A DNA stretch of 64,000 nucleotides. It comes from Escherichia phage vB_EcoM-RPN187. Positions within the stretch are counted from its first letter, which is position 1; each line of letters begins with the position of its first letter. The stretch is taken from sequence record OL770074.2. One strand, written 5' to 3'. Below are positions 26,254-50,234 of the stretch, piece after piece. Below the pieces are notes generated by a model that worked only from the letters and a program-made list of their open reading frames with translations, was not told where the DNA came from and searched no databases. The position numbers were made by a program, and so were the translations under genes.

Positions 26254-26835
26254 TTATAACAACCCTGTCAAATCATTCCAATGCTTCCGGCATAATGACA
26301 CATATCTATCAGTATCACCAATTTCAATTTGACTGCCATCTGTAATTGGAAGTCCGTCTTCCGTGACTCTAGCTACCATTGTGGCCTTTTTACCGCAATG
26401 ACAGACACCTTTAAGTTCAACAAGCTTATCGGCAATAGCCATTAATGCTTGAGAACCTTCAAATAGATTACCTTTAAAATCTGTTCGTAGTCCATATGCC
26501 ATTACCGGCACATTGTATACGTCAACAATACGACTAAGTTGATACACCTTTTCAGTAGTTAAGAACTGAGCTTCGTCAACAAATACACAATGAATATCCT
26601 TTTGTGCTGCGGCCCATTTATAGAATTCAAAGATATCCATGTCTTTTGTAATTATATTGGCGTCCTGACGAATACCAATACGAGAGACTATTTCACCTTT
26701 TGAATCGCGAGTATCAATAGCCGGTTTAAGAACTAATACACCCATGCCACGTTCTTTATAGTTATGTGCGGCAGTAAGTAATGAAGCAGACTTACCAGCG
26801 TTCATAGCGGCATATGTAAAAATTAAACTAGCCAT
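26254..26835 (-). CDS. tk: thymidine kinase
   Basis: 193 aa; P-loop AAMNAGKSASLL; C-terminal Zn cysteines CHCGKKA...CRKH. Confidence 0.9.
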   Translation of the reverse strand: MASLIFTYAAMNAGKSASLLTAAHNYKERGMGVLVLKPAIDTRDSKGEIVSRIGIRQDANIITKDMDIFEFYKWAAAQKDIHCVFVDEAQFLTTEKVYQLSRIVDVYNVPVMAYGLRTDFKGNLFEGSQALMAIADKLVELKGVCHCGKKATMVARVTEDGLPITDGSQIEIGDTDRYVSLCRKHWNDLTGLL

Positions 26836-27230: not shown

Positions 27231-27439
27231 AGCCATGTCACCTTTAAGCAATATTCTTCTACATGTTGTTTACGACCTTTCTTATCAATAAAGGTATATT
27301 CAACGAATGTTCCGATGTAGTCTTTATCTACATCATGTGGACTATTAATTGGACATTTGGTACGACAAATGCGTTCCCATTGACGAATAATTACTGCCTT
27401 ATTCTTTGGGTCATACGGATGTGGATAATGTATATTCAT
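27227..27439 (-). CDS. hypothetical protein (about 70 aa)
   Basis: Coding-strand ORF; likely start MNIHYPHPYD. Confidence 0.35.
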   Translation of the reverse strand: MNIHYPHPYDPKNKAVIIRQWERICRTKCPINSPHDVDKDYIGTFVEYTFIDKKGRKQHVEEYCLKVTWL

Positions 27440-27933
27440 AATAATGGTTCCCAATCAACAATCACAATTTCTAGTTTAGTGGAATACGTATCTAAAATCT
27501 CTTCGATGACATCCCAGTTTCCACCACCGATACCTGCACCAATTCTTGGCATGTAAATTACAGGCTTTGTTATCTTATTCTTTCCGAATTCATTTAATTC
27601 TATTATACAATTCATTAAAGCAAAGTACTCAAAATTAGGTCCAGGCTCAAACTGCGTATAAAGATTAAAGCAATAAGCTTTATGTGTCTTAAAATATTTT
27701 TCATAAACTGAATAAGTCCCGAGTTTAGACTCGTCTCCGAATTCAGTTTGAAGTTTATCGGCTTCTAGAATTTTTGGATAAGCCTTTGCTAATTGTCCTG
27801 CCACACCAGCGCCCATTGTATGAAAACAATTACACCCATGAGCAATATTATTACCTTTAGAAAACAGGGCGACAATATCGCCCTTGATATAGTTTTTAAT
27901 CACTTGCTGCAAGTCCTCTAGTATAAGAGTCAA
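27436..27933 (-). CDS. macrodomain-like protein (165 aa)
   Basis: NIAHGCNCFHTMGAGVAGQL and PRIGAGIGGG resemble the two glycine-rich ADP-ribose-binding loops of macrodomains; size fits a single macro fold. Confidence 0.5.
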   Translation of the reverse strand: MTLILEDLQQVIKNYIKGDIVALFSKGNNIAHGCNCFHTMGAGVAGQLAKAYPKILEADKLQTEFGDESKLGTYSVYEKYFKTHKAYCFNLYTQFEPGPNFEYFALMNCIIELNEFGKNKITKPVIYMPRIGAGIGGGNWDVIEEILDTYSTKLEIVIVDWEPLL

Positions 27934-28243
27934 CTAGACGGTCCACCATAGAATTGCATGCTGCCTTATCTTTAGGTTCCGCCACCGAGCATTCTAATAT
28001 TTGCCATTTTTTATAGTATCTTTTAATTAAGGTGGACGCCTTGAACCTACTAGTCGCCCCATCTTTTTCTCCGTCTTTATACGCATATAACAATTTTTGT
28101 GAAAAATCTACTTTACACTCTTGACTTTTACCACAATAATCAGACGCTGTTCTGTTTGTATACTCCGTTACATCAGTATATGTAGTATTAGCAAGAGCGT
28201 TAAACGAAACCAAGCCAACTATTAAAGCCAACATTTTGGTCAT
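27896..28243 (-). CDS. hypothetical secreted protein (115 aa), vs position
   Basis: Signal peptide MTKMLALIVGLVSFNALA; four Cys. Confidence 0.4.
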   Translation of the reverse strand: MTKMLALIVGLVSFNALANTTYTDVTEYTNRTASDYCGKSQECKVDFSQKLLYAYKDGEKDGATSRFKASTLIKRYYKKWQILECSVAEPKDKAACNSMVDRLVDSYTRGLAASD

Positions 28244-28782
28244 TCTTTTATTTCCAGTAGTTTGTTTGATTTAAGGTAATTAGCCTTTTCTAGGACTTCA
28301 GAAGCATATTTACTTCCAGCACTTGTCTTCCATCCCGCATTATATGAGGATATAGCTTTTCTTATATCCCCGTTATGTATATTTAACCAATAAGAAAATT
28401 CGATATAAGCCCATCTGGCTGAATTAGACCGCTTAGATAGCATTTTCTTAATTTGGGCATCAGTCATATTATAACCAAGCTGGTTAATTCTTGCCCTCAT
28501 TGTTGGTAGATAATTTTGGAACATTCCATACGCATGGTGACCTTTCTTATCTTTAAGATTAATACCGGCAGATGATTCCTGCCATAGTATTGCGGCCATT
28601 ATGTATCCAAGTCCTTTCTTATGCATGTTTTCATGCGTTTTAAATTTTCCATCCTTAGAAAACTGTTCCCCAAACTGATAAGCATAATTCAAGTTATCGA
28701 GTTGGACATTACTAAAAGTATGCTCGGAGCTATGTGCTGATAATGAAAGAGCAAATAGACCAGCGAGTAGTGCTTTTCTCAT
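28240..28782 (-). CDS. periplasmic lytic transglycosylase-like protein (180 aa)
   Basis: Signal peptide MRKALLAGLFALSLSAHS; family-1 lytic transglycosylase motifs WQESSAG, YGMFQ, SYNAGW. Confidence 0.55.
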   Translation of the reverse strand: MRKALLAGLFALSLSAHSSEHTFSNVQLDNLNYAYQFGEQFSKDGKFKTHENMHKKGLGYIMAAILWQESSAGINLKDKKGHHAYGMFQNYLPTMRARINQLGYNMTDAQIKKMLSKRSNSARWAYIEFSYWLNIHNGDIRKAISSYNAGWKTSAGSKYASEVLEKANYLKSNKLLEIKE

Positions 28783-28790
28783 GTTTACCT

Positions 28791-29249
28791 CTAGATTTTA
28801 ATCACTGCTTTAGAAGCTTTTCCTGGTAGTCGTTTACTGTTAATAATAGCCATTCTGCATTGAAGAGTCTTCATTTTGAACGCTGGATTTTCGCGACAAA
28901 CTGTAAGTCCTAACCAAAGATTTCCGTCAGTTATTTCTAAACGGCCTGGGCGATATTCGACACCTTCGACAAAATCTTCATCAACATCTGGACGTGCCGG
29001 CATTGATAAAAATTCTGTAACTTCTTTAACATGATTTTTTACTTTACGAAATAATTCAAAAACGTAGTTCTCATCTATTTCTCTCTGGATGGCACGATCT
29101 AAGAGATGTTGAGAATACTTGATATGAAAGCCTGGTAGTCCAAGAGACTTTGCAGCATCTTTTATACCGGCATTTATTTTGCGGAACTCCGTTTCAAAGA
29201 TTCGACGGAGTTTATTACGGCGGATAAAAACGTCAGAATTGATAGTCAT
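28791..29249 (-). CDS. regB: RegB site-specific endoribonuclease
   Basis: MTINSDVFIRRNKLRRIFETEFRKIN...SQHLLDRAIQREIDE...RLPGKASKAVIK, close to recalled T4 RegB. Confidence 0.85.
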   Translation of the reverse strand: MTINSDVFIRRNKLRRIFETEFRKINAGIKDAAKSLGLPGFHIKYSQHLLDRAIQREIDENYVFELFRKVKNHVKEVTEFLSMPARPDVDEDFVEGVEYRPGRLEITDGNLWLGLTVCRENPAFKMKTLQCRMAIINSKRLPGKASKAVIKI

Positions 29250-29278
29250 TTTTTATTTCTCCTCTAGTTGACAGGTCT

Positions 29279-29307
29279 ATAGTAACACAACTAGAGGAGA
29301 AGTAAAC
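29279..29307 (-). promoter_or_regulatory. early promoter GTTTAC-N17-TACTAT upstream of regB
   Basis: Minus strand: GTTTACTTCTCCTCTAGTTGTGTTACTATAGACC. Confidence 0.5.
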
Positions 29308-29311
29308 TACT

Positions 29312-31498: not shown

Positions 31499-31801
31499 TT
31501 ATTTACCTTTAATTACTTTAGCTGCTTCGATAGCCGCTTGCTGAAGGTCATCCATCGACATACCGAATTTAGAAGCAAAGTTATCAATTTTCTTTTCGAC
31601 AGCATTCAAAGGCTTGGCCTGTTTACCTTCATTAGCGCCAGGAAGAGCGAGAATACGCTCTTTGTCAATATAAAGGCTTACAAGTTTCTTACGGTCTTTA
31701 TCGGACAAATCATGAAATGAATGGGCCTTTTTATTTATAGCGGCTTCTAATTTACCTGCACTCACTCGCGCTTCAGTAATAAATTCTTGATATGTTTTCA
31801 T
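31499..31801 (-). CDS. ipII: internal protein II (capsid-targeted, injected)
   Basis: 100 aa; capsid-targeting leader MKTYQEFITE then ARVSAGKLEAAINKK...; recalled T4 internal-protein family. ipII versus ipIII naming rests on length. Confidence 0.7.
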   Translation of the reverse strand: MKTYQEFITEARVSAGKLEAAINKKAHSFHDLSDKDRKKLVSLYIDKERILALPGANEGKQAKPLNAVEKKIDNFASKFGMSMDDLQQAAIEAAKVIKGK

Positions 31802-31842
31802 ATGTTTCCTTTAAATGTAAATAGGCCTAAATATAGGCCTTA

Positions 31843-33505: not shown

Positions 33506-33990
33506 ATATACGCTTTCCAAGTTCCTGTTTTAAATGTTGAGATTACGCGTTTCGCGCGATTAGGTGTCTGACGATACCATTTAGATTGGGCTAGATTTAC
33601 TGCCGCTTCATCCCAACGTTTCTGTTGAAGCATACGAAGAGAATTAGTAAAACCAGCAACGCCTGCTACACCCATTTGGAAGACCATATTGACCAATGCA
33701 CATCGACGAACCGCATCTAAAGAATCATATACCGGTTTAAGTTTAGCATTACCCAAGATTCCTCGAACGGCTTTATCAACGTCTTCATTAAATAGCTTTT
33801 CGGCCTCATCAAGGGTAATTGTACCGTTGCATTTACGTCCGATCATTCTGTCAAGTTCAGCTTTAGCTACGGCTAAAGACGGGTTCTTTGTTACTAAATG
33901 ACCTATGCCAATCGTCCAAAAGCCTTCAGTGTCTTTGTATAAAGACAGTCTAAGACCTTCGTCATTACGAAGCATTTCAAATATATTCAT
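33502..33990 (-). CDS. e: endolysin (T4 lysozyme e)
   Basis: [32 protein letters not shown]...[25 protein letters not shown], very close to recalled T4 lysozyme. Confidence 0.92.
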
Positions 33991-47925: not shown

Positions 47926-48501
47926 TTGTTATTTACATTCTTCGACCCAATAGGATATAGTGCTAAAACAGTTAATAAGAACGCACCTACTATTCCTATG
48001 ACAGACATATTTCGTAACTATAAAGAGTACTTTAAACGTGTTGCTGCCAATTATAGATTACGTTCTTATTATATTAAAGGCTCTCCACGTCCTGAAGAAC
48101 TAGCAAACATAATTTATGGCAACCCTCAATTATACTGGGTCCTTTTGATGTGTAATGACAACTATGATCCATATTATGGTTGGATTACATCTCAGGAAGC
48201 CGCGTATCAAGCTTCTATTCAGAAATATGCTAATGCTGGCGGCGACCAAGTTCTTTATCATATTAATGAAAATCGTGAGAAATTTTACAATTTGGTTTCA
48301 TATCCGGATGAGCCTTTAGTGTGGTATGATAAAGGTGATGAAGCTCGTAAGTATCCGCAATATAAAGGACCTTTAGCTGCAGTAGATACTTATGAAGCGG
48401 CAGTATTAGATAATGAAAAACTTCGTAAAATAAAAATTGTTGCAAAAGAAGATATAAACTCGTTTATCACAGATTTGATTCGTGAGATGGAGATTGCATA
48501 A
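47926..48501 (+). CDS. 53: baseplate wedge protein gp53
   Basis: MLFTFFDPIGYSAKTVNKNAPTIPMTDIFRNYK... matches recalled T4 gp53; the first codon here is TTG, preceded by GGAAGGAGA. Confidence 0.85.
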   Translation: MLFTFFDPIGYSAKTVNKNAPTIPMTDIFRNYKEYFKRVAANYRLRSYYIKGSPRPEELANIIYGNPQLYWVLLMCNDNYDPYYGWITSQEAAYQASIQKYANAGGDQVLYHINENREKFYNLVSYPDEPLVWYDKGDEARKYPQYKGPLAAVDTYEAAVLDNEKLRKIKIVAKEDINSFITDLIREMEIA

Positions 48502-50234
48502 TGGAAATGATTAGCAGTAGCCTTAATTGGTTCGTGGGTGTTGTCGAGGACAGAATGGACCCATTAAAACAAGGGCGAGTTCGAGTTCGAGTCGTTGGTC
48601 TTCATCCGGCGCAGAGAACACAAGGTGATGTACAAGGTATTCCTACAGAAAAACTTCCATGGATGACTGTTATTCAACCTATTACGTCTGCATCAATGTC
48701 AGGTATTGGTGGTTCTGTTACAGGTCCTGTTGAAGGAACTCGAGTATATGGTCATTTCTTAGACAAATGGAAAACAAACGGGATTGTACTTGGTACATAT
48801 GGCGGAATAGTACGTGAAAAGCCTAATAGACTTGAAGGTTTTTCAGACCCGACAGGCCAGTATCCGCGACGTTTAGGTAATGATACGAACGTACTAAACC
48901 AAGGTGGTGAAGCTGGTTATTATTCGAACTCTAACGTAATTCAAGATAACAACTTGGATTATGGTATAAACCCAGACGATACAGATTTAGCAAATATTCC
49001 AGAAGATGATGACCCTAATTTTACAATAACAGAAATGTTACGTCGTGACGAAGGTCTTCGTGATAAAGTGTATTGGGACCATCTAGGGTATCCTACAGTA
49101 GGTATTGGACACCTTATCGTAATGGAAAAGACCCGAGACATGACTCGAATTAATAAATTGTTATCCGATCAAGTAGGGCGTGAAGTAACAGGAAATCCGG
49201 GAACTATTACATTAGAAGAAGCAACAGCGTTATTTGAGAAGGACCTTGCTAAGATGCAGAAAGACATTCGTTCTAATTCTAAAGTAGGTCCTGTTTATGC
49301 TAAAATGAACAGATCTCGCCAAATGGCATTAGAAAACATGTGCTTCCAGATGGGCGTTGGCGGTGTAGCAAAATTCAATACTATGCTTAAAGCAATGGCC
49401 ACAGGCGATTGGAAAACCGCATACAAATCTGGGCGCGATTCGTTATGGTTCCAACAGACTAAAGGGCGTGCTTCACGTGTAACAACAATTATTTTAACTG
49501 GTAACATGGAATCATATGGCGTTCCTGTTAAAACACCACCTTCACCAGGAGTTGGTGCCGATTTAGTTACTAGAAATACCGATCCAGAAGACCCAGCTGG
49601 TCCTCCTGTTCCGTTAGATTCACGTATCCTTTTTAAAGAACCTGAATCAAGTTATCGTGGTGAGTATCCATACGTTCATGCTATGGAAACAGAAAGTGGT
49701 CATATCCAAGAATTTGACGATACTCCAGGTAATGAACGTTATCGCTTAGTTCATCCAACAGGGTCATATGAGGAAGTTTCTCCGTCTGGGCGTCGTACTC
49801 GTAAAACTGTAGAAGACCTTTTTGACATCACTAATGGCGATGGGAACTTCTTGATTTCTGGCGATAAGCTTGTTAACGTTGGTGCTAATGAAATATATTA
49901 TAATATGGCAGACCGCCTCCATCAAATAGACGGCAATGATACAATCTTTATTCGTGGTAACCAATCTAAAACTGTTGAAGGCGATGGAACTCTTTACGTT
50001 AAGGGCAATATCAAAATAGTCGTTGACGGAAATGCAGATATTCTTGTTAAAGGCGATGCTAAAACTCAGGTCGAAGGGAATCATGATTACACCGTAAACG
50101 GAAACGTTAAATGGACTGTTAATGGTAATGTTGATATGACTGTTGCTGGGGATTGGGCAGAGACAATGTCTACAATGAGCTCAGTAGCTTCAGGACAATA
50201 CACTGTTGACGGATCTCGTATTGATATTGGGTAA
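48501..50234 (+). CDS. 5: baseplate hub and tail lysozyme gp5
   Basis: 577 aa; N-terminal OB domain, central lysozyme domain (RRDEGLRDKVYWDHLGYPTVGIGHL), C-terminal VxGxxxxx beta-helix repeats. Confidence 0.92.
   Translation: MEMISSSLNWFVGVVEDRMDPLKQGRVRVRVVGLHPAQRTQGDVQGIPTEKLPWMTVIQPITSASMSGIGGSVTGPVEGTRVYGHFLDKWKTNGIVLGTYGGIVREKPNRLEGFSDPTGQYPRRLGNDTNVLNQGGEAGYYSNSNVIQDNNLDYGINPDDTDLANIPEDDDPNFTITEMLRRDEGLRDKVYWDHLGYPTVGIGHLIVMEKTRDMTRINKLLSDQVGREVTGNPGTITLEEATALFEKDLAKMQKDIRSNSKVGPVYAKMNRSRQMALENMCFQMGVGGVAKFNTMLKAMATGDWKTAYKSGRDSLWFQQTKGRASRVTTIILTGNMESYGVPVKTPPSPGVGADLVTRNTDPEDPAGPPVPLDSRILFKEPESSYRGEYPYVHAMETESGHIQEFDDTPGNERYRLVHPTGSYEEVSPSGRRTRKTVEDLFDITNGDGNFLISGDKLVNVGANEIYYNMADRLHQIDGNDTIFIRGNQSKTVEGDGTLYVKGNIKIVVDGNADILVKGDAKTQVEGNHDYTVNGNVKWTVNGNVDMTVAGDWAETMSTMSSVASGQYTVDGSRIDIG

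Follow-up and report, generated by a model that had tools for sequence, protein, structure and literature searches.

Small exported glycosidases with a single SLT-like domain are known from type III secretion systems, where EtgA, IagB and IpgF (PDB 8URN, 4XP8) comprise about 150–180 residues including a Sec signal peptide; the active site of EtgA consists of the catalytic E42, Asp60, Q65 and Y116/N117/G119, and a small helical protein acts as its regulatory partner (PMC10880428). The SLT domain (PF01464, family GH23) is also found in Slt70, MltC, MltE, MltF and MltD of Escherichia coli and Pseudomonas. In phage T4, a marginal SLT resemblance of the gene vs.1 was reported in 2006 by Nolan et al. 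(PMC1524935), so that the assignment of its product as a transglycosylase exists as a published prediction; RefSeq, PHROGs and two functional-genomics papers of 2025 list the gene as 'hypothetical' or of 'unknown function'. Here, the vs.1 orthologue of Escherichia phage vB_EcoM-RPN187 (sequence record OL770074.2) was analysed in a stretch of 64,000 nucleotides (the window), which belongs to a T4-like phage genome of the genus Mosigvirus. Its product is best read as a soluble GH23 lytic transglycosylase, exported to the periplasm by the Sec system, which would cut host murein during infection in an accessory role (probability about 0.7). A GH23/family-1 lytic-transglycosylase-like fold with all four family-1 motifs kept is well supported, which lifts vs.1 from a marginal Pfam match to a well-supported assignment of fold and active site.

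Vs.1 resembles EtgA, IagB and IpgF in size, in its predicted Sec signal peptide and in its single SLT-like domain, and has in common with EtgA the glutamate (E42/E69), a glutamine (Q65/Q89) and the Y-N-x-G stretch (Y116–G119/Y147–G150, EtgA/Vs.1). It differs from EtgA in carrying Ala84 at the position of the functionally important Asp60, in having no cysteine and hence no counterpart of the EtgA disulfide, and in an extra conserved N-terminal helix with an invariant Q27; moreover, it is phage-encoded and early and has no known envelope-spanning machine to serve. Compared with Slt70 and the Mlt enzymes, Vs.1 is a bare catalytic domain without their superhelical, lipoprotein-anchor, LysM or ABC-like modules, and the similarity is marginal (18.8 bits). 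T4 Vs.1 has the same length, signal peptide, motifs and position between regB and vs, sequence drift being the sole difference. In its layout, where the gene of a predicted wall-cleaving enzyme directly precedes that of a small protein with an export signal, the pair vs.1-vs is like periplasmic effector–immunity pairs that act on the cell wall, such as Tse3-Tsi3 (type VI secretion system), and the lysozyme or transglycosylase inhibitors Ivy, PliG and T4 Spackle; Tse3 and a PliG–lysozyme complex were among the fold matches of Vs.1.

Orthology and collection of relatives

The product of open reading frame (ORF) 28240–28782 showed 83% identity over 178 residues to T4 Vs.1 (UniProt P13311; NP_049725) and matched PHROG 600, the group of T4 Vs.1, over residues 1–178 (E = 3.7e-67); the gene is the Mosigvirus orthologue of T4 vs.1. 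A first-pass annotation of the window had picked out this ORF by the motifs WQESSAG, YGMFQ and SYNAGW, had described it as a signal-peptide lytic transglycosylase of family 1 encoded among early genes and separate from endolysin e and the gp5 lysozyme domain, and had proposed comparison with T4 vs.1; as possible roles it had suggested superinfection exclusion or lysis timing. The motifs, the signal peptide, the early context and the separate positions of e and gp5 (Table 1) were borne out by the results below, which also support the enzyme class. Relatives were gathered by a word-indexed search (128 clusters) and by an exhaustive search (481 clusters at 50% identity), and occur in more than 2,000 phage genomes, among them Straboviridae and at least one genome of Ackermannviridae. 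Three alignments were used, with 30, 36 (close) and 62 (distant) sequences; the mean column identity of the 62-sequence set was 24%.

Fold and active site

Glu69 (in E69-S70-S71) was invariant in all three alignments (30/30, 36/36 and 62/62 sequences), the conservation of the catalytic Glu in homologues being one of two points on which the first-pass annotation had made its assignment depend. Y147 and G150 were likewise invariant across all three and N148 in the two closer ones; T4-like relatives had G86, Q89, N90, Y147, N148, G150 and Y159 invariant, and the 62-sequence alignment only Q27, E69, Y147, G150 and Y159. Pfam SLT matches (E<=0.01) were obtained for 40 of the 62 distant relatives, the best with 1.6e-10, several orthologues carry a precomputed PF01464 assignment, and UniRef gives several the name 'Transglycosylase SLT domain-containing protein'. 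When the 62-sequence profile was searched against the PDB sequences, EtgA was matched with E = 6e-6 and WQES of Vs.1 was aligned on WNES of EtgA; NCBIfam gave no match for Vs.1 or Vs. In the AlphaFold2 model (predicted local distance difference test score, pLDDT, 88.6), Glu69 lies at the C-terminal end of helix 59–70 and GMFQ in a beta-hairpin. The informative Foldseek matches of this model were GH23/SLT enzymes and other lysozyme-like enzymes, with weak E-values.

Ala84 was nearly invariant and occupies the position of EtgA Asp60 (lysozyme Asp52), and the loop after Glu69 contained no other conserved acidic residue in the 30- and 36-sequence alignments. An alanine at the position of the second carboxylate, together with the lack of another conserved acid, favours single-acid, non-hydrolytic transglycosylase chemistry over lysozyme chemistry, as far as can be read from the residues.

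Export signal

Signal-peptide calls were made heuristically from hydropathy and the -3/-1 rule. The N-terminus of Vs.1 (MRK / ALLAGLFALSL / SAHS|SE) falls into n, h and c regions, and AHS|S meets the -3/-1 rule; Vs.1 has no cysteine and is thus not a lipoprotein. All 36 close relatives and 59 of the 62 distant ones had a hydrophobic N-terminus; the three exceptions resemble truncated gene calls. In the AlphaFold2 model, the N-terminal helix (residues 3–14) has low pLDDT and is detached from the domain. These features point to export as a type I Sec substrate with cleavage after about residue 18.

A signal-anchor-release (SAR) endolysin was considered and rejected. The SAR domain is an uncleaved, weakly hydrophobic N-terminal transmembrane helix of at least about 18–20 residues, and such endolysins are expressed late with a pinholin. 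The h region of Vs.1 is too short for this reading, with only about 11–13 residues followed by an AxS cleavage motif; furthermore, the transcript is early, and the phage has the canonical holin t and the cytoplasmic endolysin e.

Expression and fitness in T4

T4 vs.1 and vs are transcribed as early RNA and their proteins were detected in the middle period (PMC9697503 supplements), and an early-promoter-like site was found upstream of regB in the window. In the HIDEN-SEQ transposon mapping, T4 vs.1 was non-essential, with insertions at 46 of 52 TA sites. Mean insertion counts in the liquid-LB (lysogeny broth) control were 22.6 for vs.1, 26.6 for vs, 179 for regB, 290 for tk.4 and 652 for vs.3, so that vs.1 and vs were about 7–30-fold below the flanking non-essential genes. 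In minimal medium, vs was the most depleted gene (log2 fold change -2.19) and vs.1 showed a mild drop (-0.87, p = 0.0055; non-significant after correction). A translational knock-down screen (2025) classed T4 vs.1 as 'Semi-Fit'. Taken together, these screens give vs.1 some importance for the phage, although plaques form without it. A stronger assignment is useful because the resources and both T4 screens of 2025 list the gene as of unknown function and yet report a fitness effect.

The neighbouring gene vs

The ORF that follows vs.1 had been noted in the first-pass annotation as another secreted Cys-containing protein; this description fits the sequence, and the gene, which had gone unrecognised there, is vs. 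Its product has a signal-like N-terminus (NALA|NT), four cysteines and a predicted mature mass of 11.0 kDa. The local Pfam copy contained no model matching Vs; the protein database assigns PF26829. In this family (68 clusters), a signal-like N-terminus was found in 46 of 47 aligned members and four cysteines were invariant, and Vs of the Enterobacter phage CC31 group carries a textbook lipoprotein lipobox (ALSGC). AlphaFold2 modelled Vs (pLDDT 87.2) as a bundle of four helices; the first inter-helix loop is bordered by Cys37 and Cys43 and the third by Cys85 and Cys96, an arrangement that suggests two disulfide staples. A fold search with this model was uninformative, with none of the known inhibitors of lysozymes or transglycosylases among its matches.

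The label 'valyl-tRNA synthetase modifier' of vs stems from biochemistry of the 1970s. The signal peptide, the invariant cysteines, the lipobox and the model suggest that Vs is exported and resides, oxidised, in the envelope, and a cytoplasmic synthetase is an awkward target for such a protein. A literature search combining 'valyl-tRNA synthetase modifier' with 'signal peptide' found no paper.

Pairing of vs.1 and vs was counted at 70 related loci from viral contigs (positions given as locus:positions). A Vs-family ORF started between -8 and +7 nucleotides from the vs.1 stop at 56 of these loci and lay 0.5–1.2 kb downstream at eight; at six it was absent within 3 kb. The pair was kept in Acinetobacter phages without regB and in lineages with a different downstream neighbour. 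Taken together, the export features of Vs and its adjacency to vs.1 at 56/70 loci suggest an exported two-gene module, and adjacency and translational coupling make Vs the only candidate partner of Vs.1. The fuller proposal is a tentative one: vs.1 and vs may form a conserved, translationally coupled exported module, joined in many lineages by a third exported protein. Vs would then be a periplasmic protein with disulfide bonds (anchored as a lipoprotein in some phages) that serves Vs.1 as partner or regulator. If this holds, the label referring to valyl-tRNA synthetase would be only part of the story, would stem from binding after the cells were broken or would have become attached to the wrong biology, and the need for vs in minimal medium would be an envelope phenotype. 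Such a module, which questions the classical account of Vs and valyl-tRNA synthetase, looks like a more novel lead than the enzyme class, and the pairing bears on one of the oldest unexplained host-modification phenomena of T4 as well as on the minimal-medium phenotype of vs.

A third signal-peptide protein of about 130–140 residues, ending in ...NEY(A/V)TYK, lies directly 3' of vs in many related phages (Klebsiella phage KpnM6E1, L005:3309-3707; Acinetobacter phage Mokit, L003:3282-3707; about 20 of the loci L007–L076); it was not detected in T4 or in window-like loci, where tk.4 comes after vs. The Mokit run then extends to a 99-residue protein, hydrophobic in an N-terminal segment, and on to the antiholin rI, so that envelope proteins are clustered there.

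Proposed function and alternative explanations

In the proposed course of events, early transcription of vs.1 would start at the promoter in front of regB, and the product would be exported by the Sec system, with removal of the signal peptide after about residue 18. In the periplasm, the mature, soluble protein would work as a lytic transglycosylase of family 1 (GH23) with Glu69 as single catalytic acid, cutting the bond between N-acetylmuramic acid (MurNAc) and N-acetylglucosamine (GlcNAc), most likely non-hydrolytically to give 1,6-anhydroMurNAc ends. Its function would be accessory, distinct from those of the lysis endolysin e and the tail lysozyme gp5, with a measurable contribution to fitness, and could consist in a limited and controlled reshaping of the sacculus while infection proceeds, jointly with the co-translated exported Vs. 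That last part, limited wall remodelling with Vs as partner or regulator, is possible and somewhat short of an even chance; it draws on analogy to the EtgA-type enzymes, whose activity a small helical partner tunes.

Several observations weigh against the proposal. The single-sequence Pfam SLT match of Vs.1 (E = 0.0013, 18.8 bits) is below the gathering score of 21.3; a single-sequence search of the PDB sequences gave no match, and the close-family profile gave only spurious metacaspase matches there (E about 0.3). GH23 also includes true hydrolases and a chitinase, so that the fold does not tell which products are formed, and the literature yielded no enzymatic, localisation or interaction data for any Vs.1 member. 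The low transposon counts may partly stem from local insertion bias or polarity. With respect to Vs, a cytoplasmic role in binding valyl-tRNA synthetase has been published; vs.1 relatives were without an adjacent Vs at 14 of the 70 loci, and gene order is broadly kept in T4-like phages, which makes adjacency alone weak evidence of partnership.

An unlikely alternative, and the one that survives best, is an auxiliary lysis enzyme or lysis-timing factor that supplements e by softening the wall beforehand or hastening its destruction and is restrained until holin triggering, possibly by Vs as an inhibitor in the manner of an effector–immunity pair. A murein-cleaving fold with an export signal would suit such a role, as would the extension of the Mokit cluster to rI and the greatest need for vs in minimal medium, where walls differ. 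However, T4 e (mean 2.5 per site) and t (0) were nearly devoid of insertions, whereas vs.1 is non-essential; its expression is early rather than late, no lysis phenotype of vs.1 has been reported, and the fold search with Vs found none of the known lysozyme or transglycosylase inhibitors. A direct lysis role for vs.1 is not suggested by the screens.

Less probable still is a hydrolytic muramidase, similar to g-type lysozyme, or a catalytically weak murein-binding protein in place of a lytic transglycosylase. EtgA, the closest solved relative, is itself undecided between muramidase and transglycosylase, which leaves room for this explanation; the replacement of the second carboxylate (D60/D52) by Ala84, with no other conserved acid in the loop, and the conservation of all four family-1 transglycosylase motifs speak against it.

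Exclusion of superinfecting phages, or resistance to lysis from without, in which periplasmic Vs.1 would alter or compete for the wall and so block the tails of later phages, is given a very low probability. Early expression and the predicted periplasmic location fit the timing of exclusion, and the T4 exclusion factor Spackle is, by annotation, likewise a small periplasmic protein, but murein cutting should aid penetration rather than hinder it, which makes this role mechanistically unlikely. Furthermore, exclusion in T4 is already explained by imm and sp, and the fitness effects came from screens without obvious selection for exclusion. A virion-associated wall-piercing enzyme was rejected as having a negligible chance: the transglycosylase domains of T7 gp16 and phiKZ gp144 were among the fold matches of Vs.1 (phiKZ gp181 being a further enzyme of this kind), but a cleavable-type signal peptide, the small size of the protein, its early transcript and early cluster, the lack of the late-promoter motif TATAAATA between 26258 and 31732 and a tail lysozyme role already held by gp5 all stand against it.

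Locus and gene order

The positions of the features are listed in Table 1. The 1.8-kb stretch around vs.1 is 99.5% identical to Escherichia phage AV112. The regB stop and the vs.1 start are 8 nucleotides apart on the same strand, the vs ATG and the vs.1 stop share the ATGA at 28240–28243, and the GTG start of tk.4 overlaps the 3' end and stop of vs; this GTG at 27903 is probably the true tk.4 start, rather than the TTG at 27933 of the mechanical ORF list.

Table 1. Positions of vs.1, its motifs and surrounding features (window coordinates unless a locus is named).
Feature	Position	Strand	Remarks
vs.1 orthologue coding sequence, predicted exported GH23/family-1 lytic transglycosylase	28240-28782	minus	180 amino acids, ATG start
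Predicted Sec signal peptide, residues 1-18 (MRKALLAGLFALSLSAHS / SEH)	28729-28782	minus	hydropathy, -3/-1 rule
Motif I, WQESSAG, residues 67-73	28564-28584	minus	catalytic Glu69 at 28576-28578
Motif II, YGMFQ, residues 85-89	28516-28530	minus	beta-hairpin in model
Motif III, SYNAGW, residues 146-151	28330-28347	minus	
Motif IV, Tyr159	28306-28308	minus	invariant tyrosine
vs orthologue coding sequence, predicted exported four-helix protein	27896-28243	minus	115 amino acids; PHROG 1256, Pfam PF26829
Other Vs-family ORFs with signal peptide and invariant cysteines	L037:3549-3875; L005:2992-3312; L003:2959-3285		
regB endoribonuclease	28791-29249	minus	directly upstream of vs.1; Pfam REGB_T4 E=8e-69
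Early-promoter-like site GTTTAC-17 nucleotides-TACTAT	29279-29307	minus	upstream of regB; read from sequence
tk.4 orthologue, macro domain	27436-27903	minus	Pfam Macro; 83% identity to T4 Tk.4
tk	26254-26835		order regB-vs.1-vs-tk.4-tk as in T4
Endolysin e	33508-33990		
gp5 lysozyme domain	~49026-49517		in ORF 48501-50234

The GTTTAC-17-TACTAT site is likely a T4-type early promoter and the probable start of a regB-vs.1-vs-tk.4 transcript. It was not among the results of a generic sigma-70 scan, which returned 20 sites versus 23.4 expected from shuffled sequence. A copy of TATAAATA at 31732–31739 adjoins a palindromic hairpin, AGGCCTAAATATAGGCCT (31823–31840), that is terminator-like on both strands. 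Another terminator-like hairpin, AGGGCGATATTGTCGCCCT followed by GTTTTCT (27866–27884, minus strand), is located just past the vs stop within the first tk.4 codons and could attenuate or stabilise the regB-vs.1-vs transcript. The regB leader (29250–29311, minus strand) has GGAG in its Shine–Dalgarno region (CTAGAGGAGAAATAAAAAATG), which agrees with the motif known to be targeted by RegB and with autoregulation of RegB; the ribosome-binding site of vs.1 is GAGG instead. The product of the tk.4 orthologue contains a macro domain and gave a weak DarG-like match, and T4 Tk.4 has been named AdfM, an anti-DarT factor (anti-DarT2; HIDEN-SEQ preprint, 2025).

Among the vs.1 relatives, the annotated start in Aeromonas phage SW69-9 (L004:2564-2983) is an internal Met that drops the signal peptide MRFLTILILLFTSHVFAG, and in Shigella phage Ag3 (L006:2624-3013) an internal-Met start drops the catalytic Glu motif, which is present upstream in frame; both starts look mis-called. 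An oddly repetitive relative of 2,679 residues in the representative library (P0145) matched positions 122–166 of the Vs.1 profile, towards its C-terminus, in 16 separate stretches.
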